From Patescibacteria group bacterium (lineage in GTDB: Bacteria > Patescibacteriota > Patescibacteriia > JAHIZJ01): 64,000 nt of DNA. Positions 3,557 through 58,263 of the stretch are shown piece by piece (the first letter of the stretch is position 1; the number at the start of each line of letters is the position of its first letter). A program made the position numbers and the translations under genes. The notes under the pieces were generated by a model. That model ran no database searches. It worked only from the letters and a program-made list of their open reading frames with translations, and had not been told where the DNA came from. Location: positions 64,232 through 128,231 of the forward strand of contig JAQTMH010000004.1 in NCBI GenBank assembly GCA_028714495.1, given 5' to 3'.

Positions 3557-4297
3557 TCACGCCTCGCGGGTCAGCTGTGCGATCTCGTCTTTGTAGAGAT
3601 CAAGCCACCCTTCATCAAAGAACCACTTGGGAACGAGTGATCCCTTTAGCCGCCGCTCGCGCTGGAGCGTCCGGTACGTCCAGACGCAGTGACCCTCGCT
3701 GCCGCGCACCTTAGGCGCGGTGACCGCCTGACGCACGACATTGTGCGGAAGTGTGTAGGGCGGATTGAATCCGCCGTTGATTTCGATGTAGGTGCGGCGC
3801 AGGTTGAGCGCTGCCGTGAGGAATCGCACGAGCAGGCTGAACCCGCGGTTGGTGCAGCATGCGTCGGGATGAACGATGATCAGGAACGACTGTCCCCGTC
3901 CGCGCATCGGGTGATTGATGCAATTCCAGGTGTCGCTGCCGTCGATTGCCCGGTCCGTTGTTCGGCACTCAGGCGGAGAGGACAGATACGTGATGGGGTC
4001 GCCGGGTTCGTCTCGCAGGAGCACCCGGTCAGTGGCACCGTTCACCATGAAGGCCCCGTGCCAGCCCAGGAGCTCGGGATGATACCGCGGAATCACGTAA
4101 AGACTGTCGTTCGGATCGTCCGAGAACGTGCAGCAGCCGCGCCAGAACGTGAAGGGATGCTTCTTCGGCGCGTAGAATGTGACGCGCCAGCGTTCCAGGC
4201 AGTCAGTCTCGACTTCCCAGCGCAGGAGAATGCCATAGCGTCTCCGGATGCGCGTGACCAGGCCCTTGAGGGCGCTTTCCAGACTAGGATAGAACAT
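3557..4297 (-). CDS. hypothetical protein with FNPPY motif (possible N6-adenine/N4-cytosine DNA methyltransferase catalytic motif IV), GC-rich foreign gene
   Basis: 246-aa ORF with RBS GGAAGGGGG upstream of ATG 4297. It contains NGGFNPPY; no clear AdoMet motif I was recognised. The antisense 297-aa ORF was rejected. Confidence 0.5.
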   Translation of the reverse strand: MFYPSLESALKGLVTRIRRRYGILLRWEVETDCLERWRVTFYAPKKHPFTFWRGCCTFSDDPNDSLYVIPRYHPELLGWHGAFMVNGATDRVLLRDEPGDPITYLSSPPECRTTDRAIDGSDTWNCINHPMRGRGQSFLIIVHPDACCTNRGFSLLVRFLTAALNLRRTYIEINGGFNPPYTLPHNVVRQAVTAPKVRGSEGHCVWTYRTLQRERRLKGSLVPKWFFDEGWLDLYKDEIAQLTREA

Positions 4298-14711: not shown

Positions 14712-17700
14712 TTAGTAGCCTGGGGCGATAGTGATGCCGCCGCGGAAGCCCTTGTGGTGTGAGAAGAACTGGGACAAGGCTTTACCGTTCCGGTCAAAGG
14801 TCCTGATTTGCGGACCCATGCCCTGGCCTGGCGCAGTCACAATCTCATTCGTGCCATCGCCGTTTAAGTCAGCTACGAAGGAGGTGAAATTGCCTCTTAG
14901 GCTTGATGAATAAGCCCAGAACTGGGAGAGCACCTGGCCATTCTTGTCAAACACCCGGATCTGCGGACCGGCAGAGGAAATCGGAGAGACAACAATGTCG
15001 TTGTTGCCATTGCCATCAACATCGCCGACTGAGGCATTTACGCCGCCCCTGAAAGTCTCGGCGTAGGCGAAGAAGCGTTTGATTAGAGTGCCATCGCCTT
15101 TGAAGATAGCTACCTGCGGGCCAAGTCCGGCTTTTGGACTAACCACGATATCAGCTGTGCCGTCGCCATCAATGTCACCAGTCTTTATATTGTAACCGCC
15201 GCGGACAGTGGTGGCATAGGCGAAGAATTGGCTAACCTGGGTGCCGTCGTCTTTGAGGACCCGGATCTGCGGACCGGCATTGCTTTCCGGCGCCACCACC
15301 AATTCATTTATGCCATCACCATTGGTATCTCCAGTCGCCACGGTTAAGCCACCTTTGTAAGAGCTGGCATAGGCCATAAATTGATGTTTAACATCACCCT
15401 TGTAATTAAACACGCGTACTTGCGGGCCACCACCAGACATAGGTGAGGTGATTATTTCAGCGATGTTATCGCCATTGACATCAGCCGCGGTCAAATTTAC
15501 GCCCATTCTCACTTTTGAATCATAGGCGAAGAATTGGTATTTGAGTTTGCCAGCGTGATCGAAGACTCTTATTTGAGGACCAGCACCAGCGCCTGGAGCG
15601 ACAATTATCTCGACTTCGCCGTCGCCGTCAACATCAGCCGTTGTGGCCTGGATGCCGATGCGGAGCGTGGAGGCATAGGCGAAGAAGTTAGCAATCACTT
15701 TACCGTTCTCATTGGCAAGGATCACTTGCGGACCGCCGCCTGATAGCGGAGTGGCAATGATGTCGTAGTTATTGATTTCATTTCCGGTCGCGCCAGCGCC
15801 GGTAGCCAATGCGAAATTCGTGAAGTGATCAACTGAGAAGCAAACGACATTATTTTCAGTGTCCTGGGTAACTCCGTTAGGTAACTGCCAGGCGCCATTG
15901 GTAGAGTTATAATACTTAGCTACCAGGTCGTCTTCGTTGACCCCCACTTCATCCAGCACGGCTTGATCATAAGGGATGCAGATGGTTACGTTGCTATTGA
16001 ACGACTCGATCAATTGCTGATTGCTGTCCAGGGCCGAGAAGTCCCAAGCGAAATTGATCGGCTTGGTGTCGTTGGTTCGATAGATATTTATGTTCGGTGA
16101 AGCCATGAAGGTCACGTCGCCTTCAGTAGCCAGGGCGTTGGCCGGAATGCTTACAGTAGTGCCATCGGGTAGAGTGATGTTGTTTTGATTTGAAGCGGTA
16201 ATTTGCTGGGTTAAACCTTCGGGAATCGACCAGGCCTTCTTCTCCAGAGTGAATGATTTAGTAACCTCGCCTTTGGCAGAAATCGTCACCATCGCTTCGT
16301 CAGAACGGTAGAATCCTTCAGTTGTGCCCATTTCGCAGCCAATATACCAAGTTCCGATAATCAATGGGATTCGACCGGTACCATCCATTATTTCACCGCC
16401 GGAAAAGCCGCCATCAGGATTGAAGGCATGGCACCAACCGAAGTTTACTTTTGAACCGTCGGCAAATGAAGCATTGGCAATGACCGTGGCATCAGCTTGG
16501 CGGAACTGCATAGTTACCGTAGCGGGCGAAGTCGGTGTAACCGTAATATCCTGAGCCATTTCTGGAGGCATCCAGTTATTTTTTGCCATTTCCATACCGT
16601 TGCCAGAACCGCACTCATAGGTATCGGCGACCAGGCGAACCACGCCAGTGCCACCTCGAACTTCAGAACCGGCATTAATTTCCTTGCCCCCCTCGAAATC
16701 ACCAGTTACTTTATTTTCATGGGCTCTTCGGTTTGAACACCAGATATAACCATATGACACTGGATTGCCGGACGGGTCGAGCAAATTGACTGTAATTTGC
16801 GAATCAGCTCGATAGACGGTAACGACTTTAGTGACAGTGCCGCCAACCGGTACGGTAAATGGCGCCTGGTCTGGATTTGTCTGGACAAAGTCAGGATTAT
16901 TTCGGAACCAATAGTTTAAGAAGTAGGCCTTGCCGCCTTTGACCGGCAGATTGAAACTGCCATCGGCCTGAAGACGGGTGTTCATCCACATGCCGCCGCC
17001 GTCTGATCCGGCATTGACATCAGCTTCAACATTGGTAACCTTTGTGCCGTTTTGATCTTGGAAGAAGCCGATAATATTCGCGTCTGGCGGTATCATGGTT
17101 AGCTTAACATCTTTTGTCTCGCCGGCCGCGATAGCAACTTCCACCTCCTCTTTTAACAGGAGAGTGGCTTGGTCAGAGGGAGTCTGGGCTCCAACAACAA
17201 AGGTTTCCCCACCGATCAGATGAATAGTGGCGGATCCGTTTTGAATGCCGTTGCCGAATTGATCGCCCCCCTTATTCCCACCGCTCTTTTTGCGGGCATA
17301 GGCATAGCCGAACATATTATTAATAGCGTTGCCGTTCGCGTCAACTAATTTTACGTTTATCGTGGCGTCAGCCAACTGGACCACGATATCTTCTGCAGTA
17401 ACAGTTTGGTTGGCAGACAGTATATAAGAAGGTCTCGGACCCGATTGATTTTGAATGTAGGTAGAATCAGGACCTTGGTTTATGCTGCACTCCCATTCAC
17501 CCGGCCAGACCCAGGCAGTATAGCTGCCGTCAGCGCCGGTTTGACCCTGTGTCCAGCCAAAGCCCTGCCGTTGATTGCAATTGACTCCAAGACTGGCGAC
17601 TGGCGTACCGGTATTGGTAATAACCCGGCCGACAATCCTGCTGGTTTTTTCCGACATGGTTAAGGTGCCGAGGTCGAGAGTTTGGTTAGCCGCAACTGTT

Positions 17701-19028
17701 ACCGAGGTTTCTGATAGATAATATTTAGATAATTCAGGAAACCGCTGAGTATCGGCGTTGACGCTCATTTTATACGTGCCATCAGTAAGATTCGCAGAGA
17801 AGGTGCCATCCTGATTTATTCCACTACCCATGCCCTGGCCTTCGCCTTTGCGCAGATCGACATTTCCGCCAGACAAAGGAGCACCGTTAGGCAGGACAAT
17901 TTTACCTTTTATTATCGCGTTGGTTTTAGTAACGGTGAAATCCGTTGTCAGATTTTGAACGGAATTATCGTTTACGAAACTTACCATGGTTGGCGGCTGA
18001 TTATAAGTCCAGTCAACTTGTCTCTGGCGCTGATTCTCTTGATCCCAGCCGGCATTGAGATTTAGGTTCCAGTTGCCGCCCGAGAGAACCAGGCTGTACG
18101 TTCCATTACTACCGAGATCAACGCCCTTGCCGCCAGAACCACCTTCACGATTGGCCCAGATTTGTCCGCCAGTGGTAACTGGAGTGCCGTCGTTATATCT
18201 GACAGTTCCGGTTAGGGTCTTGGTGGCAGCTTGCAATTGAGCGTTAACCGTAGCGGCAGTAGTTCCGTTATAGGCAAACTGGATTGGATCTGGGGCGACA
18301 AAGTCACCATATTGAGGACTAAGAAATATATTCAGAGTGTAGGTGCCAGCAGTGATGTTGCTATCAACAAAGGAATAGGCGCCCCATAGATCAGTTTGAG
18401 TATGAAAATTCATCGAAAAGTCAGCCGTTTGGATGTCAACACCTAGATTGGGAGCTATATCGCCGTTTGGCAGGGTTACGTTGCCCTTAACTTGGTACGC
18501 GCCAAAATAGACCGGATCAGAAGGAGTTTTATCCGGATTATCGCCACCCTCCTCACCAACCAGAGAAGTCATGCCATAGGCGCGGTAGTGGCCGTTGATA
18601 TTGATTGGGTTTCGCACGCCGGCAATTACCAAAGTGTAGTCACCAGCTGCTAGGTTGTTAACAAAAATTCCAAAATTAGTACCCCCGGCGTGGAATTCTC
18701 CAGCCAGACCAGAACTCAAGGTCGCGTCTGTAAAACTGGGATTGCAGAAATCCCATTGCCCATTACAACCGCCGCTTACTCCAAAATCAAAAACCACATT
18801 GCCAGGACTGCTCAAGGCGGCTCCCATTGTAAAATCGATTGTATAGGTGGTAGTTGCGCCAGCCACTGAACTTGCGGCGCTAAAAGAGACCGCGGTAATA
18901 CGAGAATCAGGATCAGGAGTTGTGGGCATTTCATCGGCGCGGGCTGGTTGAACCACTAGAAAAAACGAAAAAATCAATACTGCTCCAGCTCCGACGTAGA
19001 AAATTGCATTTTTTTTGGACTTTTTCAT
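14712..19028 (-). CDS. giant secreted surface protein with prealbumin/Ig-like domains and C-terminal FG-GAP/VCBS beta-propeller repeats
   Basis: 1438 aa with an N-terminal signal peptide. The C-terminal third has about 7 tandem repeats (...SGGGPQVRVF...DVDGDG..EIVV..). Confidence 0.8.
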   Translation of the reverse strand: MKKSKKNAIFYVGAGAVLIFSFFLVVQPARADEMPTTPDPDSRITAVSFSAASSVAGATTTYTIDFTMGAALSSPGNVVFDFGVSGGCNGQWDFCNPSFTDATLSSGLAGEFHAGGTNFGIFVNNLAAGDYTLVIAGVRNPININGHYRAYGMTSLVGEEGGDNPDKTPSDPVYFGAYQVKGNVTLPNGDIAPNLGVDIQTADFSMNFHTQTDLWGAYSFVDSNITAGTYTLNIFLSPQYGDFVAPDPIQFAYNGTTAATVNAQLQAATKTLTGTVRYNDGTPVTTGGQIWANREGGSGGKGVDLGSNGTYSLVLSGGNWNLNLNAGWDQENQRQRQVDWTYNQPPTMVSFVNDNSVQNLTTDFTVTKTNAIIKGKIVLPNGAPLSGGNVDLRKGEGQGMGSGINQDGTFSANLTDGTYKMSVNADTQRFPELSKYYLSETSVTVAANQTLDLGTLTMSEKTSRIVGRVITNTGTPVASLGVNCNQRQGFGWTQGQTGADGSYTAWVWPGEWECSINQGPDSTYIQNQSGPRPSYILSANQTVTAEDIVVQLADATINVKLVDANGNAINNMFGYAYARKKSGGNKGGDQFGNGIQNGSATIHLIGGETFVVGAQTPSDQATLLLKEEVEVAIAAGETKDVKLTMIPPDANIIGFFQDQNGTKVTNVEADVNAGSDGGGMWMNTRLQADGSFNLPVKGGKAYFLNYWFRNNPDFVQTNPDQAPFTVPVGGTVTKVVTVYRADSQITVNLLDPSGNPVSYGYIWCSNRRAHENKVTGDFEGGKEINAGSEVRGGTGVVRLVADTYECGSGNGMEMAKNNWMPPEMAQDITVTPTSPATVTMQFRQADATVIANASFADGSKVNFGWCHAFNPDGGFSGGEIMDGTGRIPLIIGTWYIGCEMGTTEGFYRSDEAMVTISAKGEVTKSFTLEKKAWSIPEGLTQQITASNQNNITLPDGTTVSIPANALATEGDVTFMASPNINIYRTNDTKPINFAWDFSALDSNQQLIESFNSNVTICIPYDQAVLDEVGVNEDDLVAKYYNSTNGAWQLPNGVTQDTENNVVCFSVDHFTNFALATGAGATGNEINNYDIIATPLSGGGPQVILANENGKVIANFFAYASTLRIGIQATTADVDGDGEVEIIVAPGAGAGPQIRVFDHAGKLKYQFFAYDSKVRMGVNLTAADVNGDNIAEIITSPMSGGGPQVRVFNYKGDVKHQFMAYASSYKGGLTVATGDTNGDGINELVVAPESNAGPQIRVLKDDGTQVSQFFAYATTVRGGYNIKTGDIDGDGTADIVVSPKAGLGPQVAIFKGDGTLIKRFFAYAETFRGGVNASVGDVDGNGNNDIVVSPISSAGPQIRVFDKNGQVLSQFWAYSSSLRGNFTSFVADLNGDGTNEIVTAPGQGMGPQIRTFDRNGKALSQFFSHHKGFRGGITIAPGY

Positions 19029-37071: not shown

Positions 37072-37698
37072 ATGACCTGGAAGGTGATTTCAGTGGTTCT
37101 GGCCTACGCGCTCAGTCTAGCCGGCTTTGCGCTCATTCACACGCCGAAGCCGAGCATTTGGTTTCTTGCCGGATTGACGTCCTACCTGTTGTACTTCCTC
37201 GTCAAGCAATTCAACCCGGCCGACATACCAGCCAGTCGCCAACTGCTCTGGCGCGGCAAGTCGGTGGTGGGCTGGACAATACTGGCTGGCGTATCGTGCA
37301 GCACCTGTTTGCTTCTGCCGCTCCTTATCTTCACGGCACAGTTCGGGGCGATCAAGGATTGGGTAGACGCCCTACCACTGCTGTATTCCTTAACAGCCAA
37401 TTTGATCATCTCGCTGGTGAGCCTCTACAGTGTAATCGGCTTTCCCGTTTGTACCTTTGTGGCGCTGGTCATGATTCTCCTGCCGACCAAGATTCTCGAG
37501 ACTCCAGGCAAGGTAACAATCGATCATGATTCTCTCTGGGGAGAAACAAGGACGGTCGGAAAAACCTTCTCTGAACAGTCGAAGGAGTGCCGGTGGATAG
37601 CGCTCTACGGCAATCCGGTCGGATTCCTGTACTGGGTGATCCGCGCGCTTTGCCGGTTCAGACTTCAGCGGGCTCTGGGTGTTGGAATCAGCGCTTGA
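37072..37698 (+). CDS. hypothetical membrane protein, GC-rich singleton
   Basis: GAGGGAGG SD and multiple TM segments. A terminator GCGGC..GCCGC+TTTTTTT lies at 37744..37776. Confidence 0.5.
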   Translation: MTWKVISVVLAYALSLAGFALIHTPKPSIWFLAGLTSYLLYFLVKQFNPADIPASRQLLWRGKSVVGWTILAGVSCSTCLLLPLLIFTAQFGAIKDWVDALPLLYSLTANLIISLVSLYSVIGFPVCTFVALVMILLPTKILETPGKVTIDHDSLWGETRTVGKTFSEQSKECRWIALYGNPVGFLYWVIRALCRFRLQRALGVGISA

Positions 37699-41636: not shown

Positions 41637-41821
41637 TACGACTTCCACACGCTTACCCCGACCCCGTACCAGTCGCTAACGCTTCGGTACAGGGTTCGGG
41701 GTTCTTTATTTAATGAGTATTTTCAGTTATAGTGAGTATAGTTTTAGAGAGGTCGTCCCGGAATAAATCCGGGACAGGTGCCATGGTCTCGTGTGCTACA
41801 TTAGCAGAACGTGTATGGAGC

Positions 41822-41908
41822 GGAGGCGTGCCAGAGCGGTTGAATGGGCGTCCCTGGAAAGGACGTATACCCGAAAGGGTATCAGAGGTTCAAATCCTCT
41901 CGCCTCCG
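41822..41908 (+). tRNA. tRNA-Ser (anticodon GGA)
   Basis: Acceptor GGAGGCG/CGCCTCC, anticodon loop CUGGAAA, long variable arm UAUACCCGAAAGGGUAUC, T arm AGAGGTTCAAATCCTCT. Confidence 0.85.
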
Positions 41909-41999
41909 CCCCATATATGTTTGTGAATCCATGCCCCGTCTCTCTGCCCTAGCGCGGGTTCGCCTCCGCCAGTTAAAAAGAGTTTTAGATATTTAATTA

Positions 42000-42398
42000 T
42001 TGGCTAGAAACAGAATGAAACACGCGTTGAAAATTTTCGGTTACGGTTTTCTTCTATTCATTATAACGATGGTTCTTTTGTTCCTTCTCTCGATGATCAC
42101 TGGTTCGGATTCACCGGTGGGTTTTTGGTGGGTTGGGGTAGTCTTAGCGATTATCATGACAGCCACATCTTTTTGGTTTTCCCGTGGTCTGCACCCGGCC
42201 ACAGCCAAACAGGCGTTTTCTCTTGGATTAACCTGGGCAATAATGCTGGCTGGGTTTCTCCTCGTCATTGCCATTCCCAATGGTACGACTGATATCGTTT
42301 TTGGCAACTGGAGCACATACCTGGTCTTTGTTGGGGTAGCGGTCGGACCAGTATTTATGAAGCCGAGGCCGGTTGCGCCTAATACAAAAATGCAGTAA
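42000..42398 (+). CDS. hypothetical membrane protein
   Basis: 132 aa, 4 TM. Confidence 0.5.
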   Translation: MARNRMKHALKIFGYGFLLFIITMVLLFLLSMITGSDSPVGFWWVGVVLAIIMTATSFWFSRGLHPATAKQAFSLGLTWAIMLAGFLLVIAIPNGTTDIVFGNWSTYLVFVGVAVGPVFMKPRPVAPNTKMQ

Positions 42399-42407
42399 GA
42401 ATATTCA

Positions 42408-42436
42408 CGAGCGCAGGCACGGAGACCTGCGCTCGG
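42408..42436. repeat. REP-like GC-rich hairpin CGAGCGCAGG-CACGGAGA-CCTGCGCTCGG
   Basis: 10-bp stem. Copies at 44641..44667 and, inverted-core, 45286..45311. Related units at 44890..45060. Confidence 0.75.
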
Positions 42437-42438
42437 AG

Positions 42439-42819
42439 ATGAAAACAACACTCTTATTAAATATTATGAAACTCTTCAAATCTACTATCATCTTTTTCTA
42501 CCTCATTGCCGCTTTTTGGATTGCCTTCGGCGTGATGTGGCTGTTTCAAGAGTCGGATTACCGATGGTTCTACTTTACCGGAGCGCTTAGTAACGCAATC
42601 ATGCTGGCTATTTTGACTTATCTCATGAGCCGCGGCCGGAAATGGGCATATTGGTTGTTAGTCATTCTTCTGGCTTTAAATATTATTTTGACGATTACCG
42701 ATCAGATCGGCTGGTTTGACCTGGCGTATCTGGTGCCGGCTGTGGCGGCATTTATTTTGATTTTGAAGGTGAAAAAAGAAGTGACTACGGCAAAGAGTGA
42801 AAAGCAGATTATTAAATAA
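42439..42819 (+). CDS. hypothetical membrane protein
   Basis: Start taken at MKTTLLLNIM. 4 TM. Confidence 0.5.
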   Translation: MKTTLLLNIMKLFKSTIIFFYLIAAFWIAFGVMWLFQESDYRWFYFTGALSNAIMLAILTYLMSRGRKWAYWLLVILLALNIILTITDQIGWFDLAYLVPAVAAFILILKVKKEVTTAKSEKQIIK

Positions 42820-42829
42820 TTAGAAAAAA

Positions 42830-43090
42830 ATGAATGAAAGAGGACAAGAAAACCCAATAGAAAGAGAAGGCGGCGGCATTGAGACTGCCACCTCGTTTGA
42901 CGAGCTTTACGTGGCAATCCGCGCGCAAGGAAAAATAGTCGGTTCGCGAGAGGAATATGAGCCAGAAGAAATTATCGATCTCATCGAGGGTGTCAGGCTC
43001 GGCGGTATCAGATTAAATTATGTCACGCGTAGCAACGGCATTAGGGATGCAGTGAGACGCCTACTCCAGGTAGAGAAACCGGGGGAGTAG
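42830..43090 (+). CDS. hypothetical protein
   Basis: 86-aa ORF. Confidence 0.4.
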   Translation: MNERGQENPIEREGGGIETATSFDELYVAIRAQGKIVGSREEYEPEEIIDLIEGVRLGGIRLNYVTRSNGIRDAVRRLLQVEKPGE

Positions 43091-43162
43091 TGTGATGGGG
43101 GTGGGGGTTGGGGTGAGGAAAGAACACGTATATAGATTTATTGGTGATAAACACTAATAATT

Positions 43163-44188
43163 ATGGATTCATCTCTGATTAGTAAAAAGGTGGTAAAAGT
43201 ACATGCACATTGTTTATTTCCATTAAGCACTAATGGAAAATATTCTTTTAAATTCGGCAGTTGGAAGCTCATTGAACACAATAATTTTATTGCGATATTT
43301 GAAACTAATATTGATATTAATAACCCTGAATTACATCGAGAGTATTACAAATTATTAAATAAATTAGAATGTATTTTATCTGCTGTATATCTTATTGATT
43401 TTATACCAAAGAGAATTGATTATTTTGAAATTGAAAAATTATCTGATCTTACTCGTAATGAGCAGATACGACTAGTGACGATATTTGGAAACAAGCCTTT
43501 TGTACCAACAACCATAGAGCACGAAGCCCACAGATCATTTAGTAGTATGGGTATGGTGCATATGTTTTTAAAAGCGCAGCGGGGTATTAATTATTCGGCG
43601 CCAACTCAAGATATAAAAACATTGTATGAATTTTTGAATGAGCATACAAACATAGCAAATAGTACAGGGTTAATTCGAGAGGGATATTGGAATCTAAACT
43701 ACTTAAATCAAAACCAATTATATGGTTATTTTAACGAGTATTCCCTACGAAGCGCAATATTATTAATTGTATCAGGACTTGAGAATATTTTTACAAAAGG
43801 GGCAAAGCAAGAGATAATTTATCAATTCTCGACCATTGGGAGTATTTATTATGACAGATTTGTAACAAATGATTATTTTAATCAATTTGATAACGTAAAA
43901 AAAATACCATCAAGAGATTTCAGAATAATATTAAAAAAATTATATGATATTCGTTCGGCGATTGCCCACGGTAGCAGTGGTTTTCTCGGAAGTAAAATAA
44001 AGGAGACTAACGAAATATTTTGTAGAATGGGTATGCGTCAGGTTCAATATAAAAATATTCAGCTTTTAAGAGCTAATGCATTAATGTTATTTTCATTCCT
44101 TCAACCGCATATTCACGGAATTATAGTTCAAGCAAAAGAGAAATTAAGTATGGGGGGAGAGATAATCGAAGATACATTTATCAATTAG
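43163..44188 (+). CDS. HEPN-domain protein, abortive-infection-like putative RNase (AT-rich foreign gene)
   Basis: C-terminal LYDIRSAIAHGS contains the R-x4-H HEPN catalytic motif. Marked AT-rich composition relative to neighbours. Confidence 0.5.
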   Translation: MDSSLISKKVVKVHAHCLFPLSTNGKYSFKFGSWKLIEHNNFIAIFETNIDINNPELHREYYKLLNKLECILSAVYLIDFIPKRIDYFEIEKLSDLTRNEQIRLVTIFGNKPFVPTTIEHEAHRSFSSMGMVHMFLKAQRGINYSAPTQDIKTLYEFLNEHTNIANSTGLIREGYWNLNYLNQNQLYGYFNEYSLRSAILLIVSGLENIFTKGAKQEIIYQFSTIGSIYYDRFVTNDYFNQFDNVKKIPSRDFRIILKKLYDIRSAIAHGSSGFLGSKIKETNEIFCRMGMRQVQYKNIQLLRANALMLFSFLQPHIHGIIVQAKEKLSMGGEIIEDTFIN

Positions 44189-44244
44189 TGATTTGTTTCG
44201 AAATACGTATCAATACTGATTAAACTTATAAAAACATTATTATT

Positions 44245-44601
44245 ATGAAATTCATTAAGTCGTCAGATAAACCCTGGGAGGAGAAAAAGGGGTATAGCAA
44301 GAAAATCTTTCTTGATGAAGAAGATTTGCATACGCCAGGCGCGCGTATTCAACTGATAAAAATCAAACCGAAGGAAACGGCGAAAAATCATTACCATAAA
44401 AAGCAAACGGAAATTTCTTATTTCCTAAATAACAACGGATTTTATATTGTTAATGGTATAAAGCAGCAAGTGGAAGCAGGCGATGTCATTGTTATCGAGC
44501 CCAATGATCGGCACGAAGTGGTTAATAATACTAATAGTGATTTCTTGTATGTTGTTTACAAGCTTAATTATGCCGAAGACGATCTTTTTTGGGGAAAATG
44601 A
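44245..44601 (+). CDS. cupin-domain protein
   Basis: HYH...E...H pattern (KNHYHKKQTEISYF ... PNDRHEV). Confidence 0.65.
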   Translation: MKFIKSSDKPWEEKKGYSKKIFLDEEDLHTPGARIQLIKIKPKETAKNHYHKKQTEISYFLNNNGFYIVNGIKQQVEAGDVIVIEPNDRHEVVNNTNSDFLYVVYKLNYAEDDLFWGK

Positions 44602-44701
44602 TAATGACGTGTCGAGTGCGTTGAGGGCTGATATCGACATCGCGCAGGCACGGAGACCTGCGCTCGGCGGCTATCCTAAATAACATTAACAAATAAAAAT
44701 C

Positions 44702-44884
44702 ATGTCAAACTGCTTCCAAAAAGGCGGATCAGCTGGCGCGGTCTATGGCCTGGGCTTGATCGGCGCAGCTGTTTATTTTATCGGCCACGCGGGGGGTTTT
44801 TGGATCGGCGTGCTCGGATTTCTCAAAGCGCTGGTTTGGCCGGCCATGCTGGTTTATCGCGCGCTCGAGGTTTTGTATCAATAG
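44702..44884 (+). CDS. small membrane protein (60 aa)
   Basis: Gly-rich TM hairpin. Confidence 0.35.
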   Translation: MSNCFQKGGSAGAVYGLGLIGAAVYFIGHAGGFWIGVLGFLKALVWPAMLVYRALEVLYQ

Positions 44885-44889
44885 GGCTC

Positions 44890-45060
44890 GGGTGCGCCCA
44901 ACGAGAGCGCGGGCACAGACCCGCCCGCATTGCTTCACAACGCGAAGTGGGCGGGGACCCGCGCTCGGAGGATAATAATTATCCTATCGTGGGGGCGCGG
45001 AATTGAAAAAACACATCGCGCACCCGCGGAGGGGCGCGCTCGGAGGATAAAAATTATTCC
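44890..45060. repeat. cluster of REP-like GC-rich palindromes (BIME-like)
   Basis: Contains CCCGCCC..GGGCGGG, GGATAATAATTATCC and two CGCGCTCGGAGGATAA units. Confidence 0.7.
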
Positions 45061-45074
45061 ACCGTTCAAATCGA

Positions 45075-45353
45075 ATGACCCAACGAAGAATTTATCAAGA
45101 CGAATTCCCGTATTTCGTAACATTTCGGACGGCTGGGGACAATCCGTTTTTTGAAAACGCGAAATACGCCGCATTATTGTCGGATATTATATTCGAGGCG
45201 GGAAAATTGAAAGGATTTGACGTTTTATCGTACCAAATCATGCCGGATCACTTACATTTATTTACTCAAAAAACCCAAACCGACCACCGAGCGCAGGCCT
45301 CCGTGCCTGCGCGTACATCGAAAACGGATCGCGCACCCCGTTTTTTACTATAG
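45075..45353 (+). pseudogene. truncated REP-associated tyrosine transposase (RAYT, IS200/IS605 TnpA-like), disrupted by a REP hairpin
   Basis: HUH motif QIMPDHLHLF at residues 56-65. The ORF ends at 92 aa before the catalytic Tyr region. The REP-like hairpin 45286..45311 sits at the break. Confidence 0.6.
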
Positions 45354-57858: not shown

Positions 57859-58154
57859 TCCGCGATAGCTCAATGGTAGAGCAACCGGCTGTGTACGAAA
57901 ACGCAGCTTCCGATGGAAACGTCGGGATGAACTCTCTGGGATAACGGTGAAGGCTTCATTCAAATTCTATTTGAATATGCTGATACCGTGGGAACCCCCG
58001 CACCTTCCGAAGGTGAGGGGGGCGCCGTAGAGACTAGATACCAGAGTGCCTAAACCCAGTCATTTGGGTAAGGCAAAGATATAGTCCATGCCGTATGGAA
58101 ACATATGGATTACGTGTAACCGGTAGGCTGTCGGTTCGAATCCGACTCGCGGAG
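57859..58154 (+). tRNA. tRNA-Asn (anticodon GUU) interrupted by a group I intron in the anticodon loop
   Basis: Exon 1 is 57859..57892 and exon 2 is 58117..58154. The spliced product has acceptor TCCGCGA/TCGCGGA, D arm GCTC-AATGGTA-GAGC, anticodon stem ACCGG/CCGGT, loop CUGUUAA, T arm GTCGG-TTCGAAT-CCGAC and discriminator G. Confidence 0.8.
57893..58116 (+). ncRNA. group I intron (224 nt, small IC3-like tRNA intron)
   Basis: P1 pairs exon GCUGU (57888-92) with IGS GCAGC (57903-07), giving a U.G wobble at the splice site. R element AGAGACTAGA (58029-38) and S element AAGATATAGTCC (58076-87) form P7. The terminal G (omega-G) is at 58116. Confidence 0.8.
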
Positions 58155-58263
58155 CTCGCCGCTTTTACTATTTAGGAAGATATTTAGGAAGAAGTGATGG
58201 ATCAATAATAAATTATCCCTTTGGATTGATTTTTTGCTTGATTAGGGGTAAACTTTAAAAAAG

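Follow-up and report, generated by a model that had tools for sequence, protein, structure and literature searches.

Transposases of the TnpA-Y1 type encoded in 2178 complete bacterial genomes were classified by Quentin et al. in 2018 (PMC6006769). In subclass 2.4 of that scheme, which corresponds to group 4 of Bertels et al. among the transposases associated with repetitive extragenic palindromes (REPs), or REP-associated tyrosine transposases (RAYTs), REPs located inside the transposase gene keep its reading frame and form a variable peripheral extension of a protein with a median length of 194 aa, the signature NH[IFV]H / WQ / YIxNNP and no C-terminal extension (PMC6006769). An 8-aa insertion that closes alphaB is a further trait of the subclass. 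Subclass 2.7 is found in Cyanobacteria and a few other phyla, and its REP in Desulfomonile tiedjei reads GTAG-CGCCGGC-CTCCGT-GCCGGCG (Table S1, PMC6006769). For the Escherichia coli TnpA-REP protein (YafM/RayT; PDB 4ER8; Messing et al. 2012), the recognition unit is a hairpin with a 5' tetranucleotide foot, a CT cleavage site is the proposed pairing partner of the last two foot bases (A3 and G4), and base-specific hairpin contacts are made by R78 and K82 in the alphaC region (PMC3479197). The text of the 2018 classification, searched for the names of lineages of the candidate phyla radiation (CPR), returned none (PMC6006769), and no published description of REPs in CPR was found. The locus described here lies in 64,000 nucleotides of DNA from a Patescibacteria group bacterium (GCA_028714495.1, contig JAQTMH010000004.1, positions 64,232 to 128,231 of the forward strand); this whole stretch is referred to as the window, and positions are counted from its first letter. 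The region at 44.9-45.4 kb of the window is probably (at a probability of about 0.8) a decayed 'REPtron', that is, a class-2 RAYT (an HUH/Y1 single-strand DNA nuclease-ligase) together with its cognate REP hairpins. This assignment was built on what could be observed directly, namely the anatomy and homology of the locus, the in-frame hairpin doublet found family-wide, the covariation of the hairpin stems, and the match between intragenic and extragenic hairpins. Hairpins were scored with a covariance model, R1, constructed from hairpins of homologous loci, and the features of the locus are as follows.

42408..42436, + strand: extragenic REP copy, an exact pattern match to the 29-mer CGAGCGCAGGCACGGAGACCTGCGCTCGG
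44641..44667, + strand: extragenic REP copy of 27 nt (R1 32.8 bits, E 1.5e-6)
44905..44968, + strand: nested REP, outer stem GAGCGCGGG/CCCGCGCTC and a GG tail
44951-44990 and 45026-45065, + strand: pair of 40-nt direct repeats, 80% identity
45017..45043, + strand: extragenic REP with the compensated stem GCGCACCC/GGGCGCGC (R1 29.4 bits, E 1.2e-5)
45075..45353, + strand: RAYT (TnpA-REP) pseudogene or fragment of 92 aa, comprising the N-terminal HUH half and a TAG stop
45286..45312, - strand: intragenic REP, left member of the doublet (R1 40.3 bits)
45327..45340, + strand: remnant of the second (right) intragenic hairpin, gatCGCGCACCCCg, 5' arm only

The open reading frame (ORF) at 45075-45353 starts MTQRRIYQDEFPYF. 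Its residues 1-63 constitute the HUH half, in which DHLH at residues 58-61 (encoded by 45246-45257) aligns with the HUH motif (beta3) of Y1_Tnp and REP_Tyr_transpos; a degenerate insert follows and is closed by the TAG at 45351-45353. The NCBIfam model REP_Tyr_transpos (NF047646) matched the ORF at 43.2 bits (E 3e-11) over model positions 2-76 of 146, with a cut-off of 80, and was the top-scoring family in every case, including the full-length homologue P0003 (73.5 bits); the IS200 model reached 15.7 bits. A reading of the same DNA made by a model from the sequence alone, without database searches, had proposed a REP-like family with a truncated RAYT, and this proposal is upheld by the 43-bit NF047646 match and the absence of the catalytic-Tyr half. 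The HMMER check that it had suggested, with Pfam Y1_Tnp (PF01797), gave the 92-aa fragment 20.3 bits, under the cut-off of 23. The same reading had placed the stop exactly where the REP sits and had the RAYT interrupted by it, and on both counts it needs correction: codons 71-80 belong to the REP, which encodes HRAQASVPAR in frame, and the stop comes 13 codons further along; among the homologous inserts described below 39 of 46 are likewise in frame and open, the REP being read through. The same insert site and frame were seen in P0001/L040 (HRARAAVPAR), L016 and P0023.

Beyond the first hairpin the fragment is degraded. The second hairpin (gatCGCGCACCC...) ends at ~45340, its loop, 3' arm and CTCGG tail being gone by comparison with homologous loci L077, L040 and L074, whose inserts go on as CGCGCACCC-ACAGCG-GGGTGCGC-TCGG. 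After the TAG at 45351, ~120 nt are left before a convergent gene, and tblastn with the C-terminal halves of homologues detected no catalytic-Tyr half (Y-x3-NP) in the six frames of the window. The gene is regarded as dead on three grounds: its second hairpin breaks off behind the 5' arm, a stop comes next, and it has no catalytic-Tyr half; the window copy is thus a fragment of a RAYT family member and no working member. The stretch ENISCWYKVLKG downstream of the stop was examined as a possible relic of the beginning of alphaC and set aside as too weak for use. Over the 63 N-terminal codons the ratio of nonsynonymous to synonymous substitution rates (dN/dS) was ~0.08 against both L045 and L046 (83-86% amino-acid identity), which means either that the loss was recent or that the fragment keeps some use.

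Most homologues are preceded by a family leader composed of a hairpin, CCTTCCCC-loop-GGGGAAGG, and a T-run, with the ATG following at once and the 3' arm supplying GGAAGG at Shine-Dalgarno distance. Examples stand at L040 2866-2889, at L044 4976-5000 and directly 5' of the RAYT ATG in ~30 other loci, often behind a promoter-like TTGACA...TAnnnT pair, and from its sequence the leader would seem to act both as a terminator and as a mask of the Shine-Dalgarno sequence. It resembles the leader of IS200, in which a stem-loop hides the ribosome-binding site. At the window copy the leader hairpin is absent and there is no Shine-Dalgarno sequence at a usable distance.

Relatives of the window ORF were collected by an HMMER protein search, which returned 158 sequences at E<=1e-3, many of them 170-210 aa long as against the canonical ~150 aa and carrying a hypervariable stretch after H-x-H-LL and before (N/T)ISxLMxxIK (for example DRTLENVRSG...ERTLSRVRSG or APAERCARG...RVSVPAMG). 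A metagenome scan with the N-terminal 66 residues added 54 loci, giving 55 non-redundant loci when combined with those found earlier; loci were fetched through the N-terminal half alone, so that intact genes were not selected for. An insert of 81-246 nt at the same site, together with the C-terminal half, was present in 46 of the 55; these inserts were in frame and open in 39 loci, in frame with a single stop in 4 and frameshifted in 3. Five loci had no insert, and the C-terminal half was missing in four (the window, L040, L066 and one contig end). The 39 open inserts varied in length and every one was a multiple of three, which, given retrieval by the N-terminal half only, indicates that the frame across the insert is under selection; the in-frame homologues are predicted to be working genes that tolerate the insert. 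Independent truncations at this same point were found in L040 (5 assemblies) and L066, and with its repeated loss of the C-terminal half the doublet that makes up the insert (see below) looks like a hot spot of breakage or recombination.

The insert separates the HUH strand (beta3) from helix alphaC and falls between residues 63 and 91 of 4ER8, to which the homologues align on each side of it (similarity marginal, E 0.007). Full-length homologues have DH[VL]H, [WF]QxRF and YIxxNP and continue for ~32 aa past the Tyr; the HuH motif was DHVH in 28 cases, DHLH in 9 and NH[VI]H in 6, the W motif was [WF]Q, and the Y motif was YI[KQR]xNP (YIKNNP, YIKHNP or YIKQNP, for example). The family can be recognised by the N-terminus MTQRRIYQ, and one homologue bears the JGI name 'REP element-mobilizing transposase RayT'. 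A tblastn search of plasmids with an insert-less member gave only 27-33% matches labelled 'transposase', which were of no use for subclass placement.

Nearly every resolvable insert consists of two hairpins in opposite orientation. Fifty-three intragenic hairpins could be aligned without gaps as 5'-..CGCA-nnn-loop-nnn-TGCG-CTNGG, with the consensus loops GGAG, ACGGAG and CACGGAGA and invariant positions C10, G11, C12, G27, C28 and T31. Written in the conventional REP orientation, the consensus is 5'-CCNAG-CGC...stem-loop, and in its foot, 5'-CC[GAC]AG, the A was present in 53/53 hairpins, the G in 40/53 and the two C's in 45/53 each; the canonical foot GT[AG]G is not that of the family. Both doublet orders exist (hairpin-CTCGG...CCGAG-hairpin and its reverse). 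Inner stems are almost never shared by the two hairpins of a gene, which prevents the doublet from folding as a single long hairpin. The reading frame is constant within each hairpin class, which is better accounted for by inheritance or homologous exchange than by de novo insertions on many occasions. Differing hairpin frames were also considered as proof of selection at the DNA level, an argument that was rejected in this form because the frame is fixed within a class and the comparison is valid only between classes or orientations.

Stem covariation was measured at sites located from flanking anchor columns only, without selecting for pairing, because a count on hairpins chosen for their perfect stems would be circular. 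At the 107 sites found in this way, 382 of 428 variable stem cells pair, as against 222 +/- 10 in shuffled data (maximum 257 in 2000 shuffles); more than ten stem variants occur, and kinship of the sequences inflates the pairing figures. Judged from these alignments, the stems clearly change by compensated substitutions, and these alter the amino acids encoded on both arms.

Within the window, the copy at 42408 has the stem CGAGCGCAGG/CCTGCGCTCG, the loop CACGGAGA and a G tail, is in inverted REP (iREP) orientation on the + strand, and lies in the 41-nt gap from the ORF at 42000-42398 to an ATG at 42440 (R1 40.3 bits, E 1.6e-8; DNA fold -13.8 kcal/mol, z -5.1). The 44641 copy is the 29-mer minus the first two bases of its left arm, with the same inner stem and loop, and lies between a cupin gene (end 44601) and a 60-aa ORF (start 44702); pattern matches of this type numbered 0 in 100 shuffles of the window. 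The intragenic copy at 45286 is the reverse complement of the 42411 copy (26/26 nt aligned, 96% complementary, with one loop change, A to G), and its coding-strand sequence, 5'-CCGAG-CGCAGGC-CTCCGT-GCCTGCG, is in canonical REP orientation. The three positions given in the sequence-only reading for its hairpin (42408, 44641 and 45286) are accordingly right, the 'core-inverted' form of the third being a copy on the opposite strand with the one loop change. So is its cluster of palindromes at 44890-45060 resembling a bacterial interspersed mosaic element (BIME), which resolves into the nested REP, the REP at 45017-45043 and the 40-nt direct repeat, each unit of which joins the 3' arm of a REP to the CTCGG tail and GGAGGATAAWAATTATYC.

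The loop of the nested REP holds a second palindrome (CCCGCCCGC...GCGGGCGGG), and its DNA fold of -22.8 kcal/mol (z -3.8) was equalled by 0/200 shuffles. The REP at 45017-45043 has a different, still complementary stem, the left arm of which is that of the second intragenic hairpin's remnant, and ends 28 nt 5' of the RAYT start; the closest homologue, L045, has a REP with the same left end as at 45017 (acatCGCGCACCC) and related sequence 9 nt before its ATG. With REPs 28, ~110 and 404 nt upstream and one inside, the RAYT gene shows the arrangement of a REPtron. Window hairpins have GC-rich stems of 7-10 bp, loops of 6-8 nt and folding energies of -9.5 to -13.8 kcal/mol as DNA, and are in the range of stable stem-loops of 20-40 nt that defines REPs. 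The R1 scan of the 64-kb window gave four significant copies, all inside 42403-45320, and the total is five copies, 4/5 of them intergenic and all within 3 kb. No T-run follows the hairpin at any copy, those at 42408 and 44641 were not called terminator-like, and an Rfam search at the gathering threshold matched the hairpins to no family. Hairpins within hairpins were also observed at L015 5992-6065, at L045 ~3610-3665 (in the RAYT insert) and at L079 ~3775-3850, and thus both outside and inside RAYT genes; the palindrome nested in the REP loop is CCCGCC..GCATTGC..GGCGGG in three cases and another sequence in L079, and REP loops may be the target of another miniature element.

Hairpins outside RAYT genes were then compared across loci and genomes. 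In 394 kb of homologous loci R1 gave 100 matches, ~88 of them within RAYT genes and most of the others no more than ~2 kb from a RAYT. For extragenic hairpins near a RAYT (<=0.4 kb, and 2.6 kb for a window copy), the hairpins of the own gene ranked 0-1 among 40 loci in 5 of 11 cases; both window copies with the AGG stem belong to these top-ranked cases, with 96% identity to the intragenic hairpin over core and foot. The sequence-only reading had named confinement of the hairpin to this window as part of the outcome that would speak against it, and an exact 22-mer scan of genomes in GTDB returned 39 loci. In metagenome-assembled genomes (MAGs) labelled Patescibacteria, the exact 22-mer is followed by a T[CT]GG tail, as in the window, and the hairpin occurs on 2-4 contigs each, often as doublets; the 8-kb loci around the 22-mer in these MAGs contained no RAYT. 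CAC(C) or TAC comes after this hairpin in a Chloroflexi MAG (~15 contigs), in Acidobacteria, in Burkholderiaceae and in other genomes; read on the opposite strand, this is the canonical foot GTGG or GTAG. Since an identical hairpin carries canonical feet in other phyla, the window element is a close relative of canonical REPs in which the first foot bases have changed.

One further locus, L036 (CAZAMC010000002.1, labelled Gammaproteobacteria), is syntenic with 36.4-41.1 kb of the window, with amino-acid identities of 75% for GroEL and 67% for phosphoenolpyruvate (PEP) synthase. It has the exact 22-nt hairpin at 1696-1733, between the GroEL and PEP synthase genes, where the window has a weak R1 match only (37637-37683, 10.5 bits). 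The 22-mer in L036 shows that the hairpin is not specific to the window, and the label of L036 raises doubt about either the taxonomy of the L036 MAG or the CPR assignment of the window. Among 20 window ORFs, the Pfam matches are to housekeeping families and do not decide the taxonomy. Comparison of the window by megablast or blastn with the 98 loci collected here revealed no source contig, and look-ups for proteins identical to the 92-aa ORF or to the 804-aa PEP synthase gave no match.

Set beside the described systems, the family is like subclass 2.4 in its in-frame REP insert between beta3 and alphaC, its length, WQ, YI[KQR]xNP, short tail and gene-flanking REPs. It is unlike subclass 2.4 in its HuH motif, which in most members is DH[VL]H, not NH[IFV]H, and comes nearer to the [ND]HVH of subclass 2.7, in its foot (5'-CCNAG, not GT[AG]G), and at the position of E. 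coli R104, a guide-binding residue conserved in 2.4 and represented by N, D, S or T in the family; at the E. coli positions E100, H101 and R104, which bind GTAG, the family has T/S/A, R and N/D. Subclass 2.7 is similar in its HuH motif [ND]HVH and in having no C-terminal extension, and its D. tiedjei REP matches the window hairpin (CGAG-CGCAGGC-CTCCGT-GCCTGCG) in foot length (4 nt), in a 7-bp stem that begins with CGC and in the 6-nt loop, CTCCGT in both; the window foot is CGAG as opposed to GTAG, and intragenic REPs are not reported as a rule in 2.7. The REPs and BIMEs of E. coli have in common with the family the HUH/Y1 fold, the foot A (invariant here), CT after the stem on the other strand and REP clusters adjoining the gene, whereas in E. 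coli the gene is free of REPs, its product ends in an inhibitory tail, the REP stems are bulged and copies number in the hundreds. As in REP doublets forming hairpins (REPINs; Bertels and Rainey 2011, PMC3116915), two inverted REPs with a short spacer make up a unit; unlike in REPINs, the inner stems differ and most copies are intragenic. IS200/IS605 elements likewise combine a Y1 HUH transposase with subterminal hairpins, but the family differs from them in model score (15.7 bits for IS200 against 43), in having Y...NP and not Y...Q, in lacking tnpB, in its mutually inverted hairpins and in same-genome paralogues that are diverged and mosaic, not identical. Relative to the literature, the family stands apart by its CCNAG foot, the in-frame intragenic REP itself being already published; the view that a REP/RAYT system would be notable in a genome of this gene content is accordingly weakened, in-frame intragenic REPs having been described for subclass 2.4 (PMC6006769) and a homologue already being labelled RayT at JGI.

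According to the decayed-REPtron reading, the gene of this family natively holds a doublet of inverted REP hairpins in its reading frame, between beta3 and alphaC. The window copy has kept its HUH half and first hairpin intact and in frame, its second hairpin has been cut, and the WQxRF/YIxxNP half has been deleted. With the WQxRF and catalytic-Tyr half deleted, the window copy would therefore be unable to cleave DNA alone. The four extragenic hairpins up to 2.7 kb upstream (two with the stem of hairpin 1, one with that of hairpin 2 and one nested) would most simply have arisen by local spread through RAYT-type single-strand cleavage and joining, or by recombination. By analogy with E. coli TnpA-REP (PDB 4ER8, PMC3479197), the protein of the family would bind the hairpin and its 5' foot, and the last bases of the foot, AG, would pair with a CT cleavage site. 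Several points count against this reading. Copy number is low and local (5 in the 64 kb covered, all within 3 kb), in contrast to the high-copy, genome-wide dispersal that is characteristic of REPs; ~88 of the 100 R1 matches in homologous loci are intragenic, not extragenic; and the foot is CCNAG, not the defining GT[AG]G. The activity of the RAYT family members is a prediction, and an intact RAYT acting in trans in the source genome is assumed. The dN/dS of ~0.08 against L045 is that of strong purifying selection, so the fragment could still be in use and not be a pseudogene.

According to the sequence-only reading, a mobile REP struck an uninterrupted RAYT gene and its insertion truncated the ORF. 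The REP does lie inside the ORF, which ends 40 nt beyond it, and the 96% identity of the intragenic copy to the extragenic ones is as expected of a recent insertion. This account is nevertheless quite improbable: an insert is present at the exact site in 46 of the 51 homologues with both halves (39 in frame and open), the hairpin frame is fixed per class, the nearest relatives L045 and L046, at 83-86% amino-acid identity, both have doublets, and the window REP is translated through in frame, the stop coming only later, within the degenerate second hairpin, and the C-terminal half being absent, for which a 27-nt insertion is no explanation. That the 92-aa product is a functional stand-alone HUH half, binding REP hairpins or poisoning full-length RAYT paralogues, is unlikely. 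It would agree with the low dN/dS against L045/L046 over the 63 N-terminal codons and with the recurrence in other lineages of ORFs comprising the N-terminal half only (P0001/L040 in 5 assemblies, L066, P0009, P0010 and P0037); yet dN/dS averages the whole divergence, most of which may be older than the truncation, and a contig end may be what cuts short some of these database ORFs. The window copy, moreover, is without the leader hairpin and a usable Shine-Dalgarno sequence, and the base-specific contacts of E. coli TnpA-REP (R78, K82 and R97) fall in the part that is missing (PMC3479197).

The hairpins at 42408 and 44641 are GC-rich stem-loops just past stop codons, a position in which ordinary terminators or mRNA-stabilising stem-loops would also be found, in this case beside a transposase relic by coincidence. 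Enterobacterial REPs secondarily serve in both of these roles. For the window hairpins such a coincidence is hardly credible, as no T-run follows and neither copy was called terminator-like, the same sequence stands within the ORFs of ~46 RAYT homologues, foot and loop are conserved and the stems covary, and the 22-mer is common to GT[AG]G-footed REPs of other phyla.

Hairpin class and protein sequence are associated across the family. Hairpins with 4-nt loops (8-bp mixed stem) occur with an alphaC of the type IKGNF, 14 aa before WQ, in 13/13 cases, and hairpins with 6-8-nt loops (GC stem) with the type IKSYF, 19 aa before WQ, in 18/18; 37 listed protein sequences, inspected by eye, obey the same rule, and the N-terminal halves do not follow the split. 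L045 (3400-3954) and L046 (6001-6525) are paralogues on one 312-kb contig, Ga0265297_10000093, with DNA identities of 94% over codons 1-66 and 83% over the distal C-terminal half, and between these parts they carry unrelated cassettes of insert plus alphaC, one of each class; L089 and L090 show the same discordance. The mosaic of L045 and L046 points to an exchange of cassettes, apparently bounded by the intragenic REP doublet. Given the covariation of hairpin class with alphaC and the contacts made from the alphaC region in E. coli, doublet and recognition segment may accordingly be transferred as one. We offer it as a tentative and rather doubtful proposal, based on correlation, that the doublet, far from being a passenger that is merely put up with, would form with alphaC-beta4 an exchangeable 'specificity cassette' physically linking a RAYT to a copy of its own substrate, and that the family, with its CCNAG foot and altered guide residues, would be a distinct subclass whose target specificity is modular and swappable. 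The window itself, holding a dead RAYT and a handful of local REPs, carries little weight in this respect; through its homologues, the partnership of RAYT and REP with in-frame REPs reaches a large family from groundwater and sediment metagenomes and MAGs labelled Patescibacteria. If true, the cassette idea would provide a natural experiment on the co-evolution of an HUH nuclease with its hairpin and on the re-programming of specificity.

Other features of the window were recorded. A low-GC island at 43100-44600 (25-36% GC as against ~47% for the window) has the REP at 44641 as its right edge and lies 1.2 kb downstream of a tRNA-Ser(gga) gene at 41821-41911. It contains the cupin gene and a 341-aa ORF with an RSAIAH (Rx4H) motif, which had been called a HEPN gene lying with its neighbours between two REP copies; the location is correct (42408 and 44641), and the HEPN call is weak (HEPN_Apea, E 0.08). 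Neither the HEPN-like and cupin ORFs nor their neighbours were matched by PADLOC. A group I intron (Rfam RF00028, 52 bits, 57883-58108) lies within a tRNA gene at 57859-58155, which was missed by the standard tRNA scan and was identified by ARAGORN with introns allowed as tRNA-Thr(tgt) with a 224-nt intron at position 33. Three repeat pairs are unrelated to the REP: 1945-2055/48881-48991 (111 nt, 91%), 3169-3268/4590-4689 (100 nt, 93%) and 60-108/58372-58420 (49 nt, 78%), the last of which has a member just downstream of the intron-containing tRNA gene. Finally, a minus-strand ORF of 1438 aa at 14712-19028 contains internal periodic repeats of 153 nt (51 aa).

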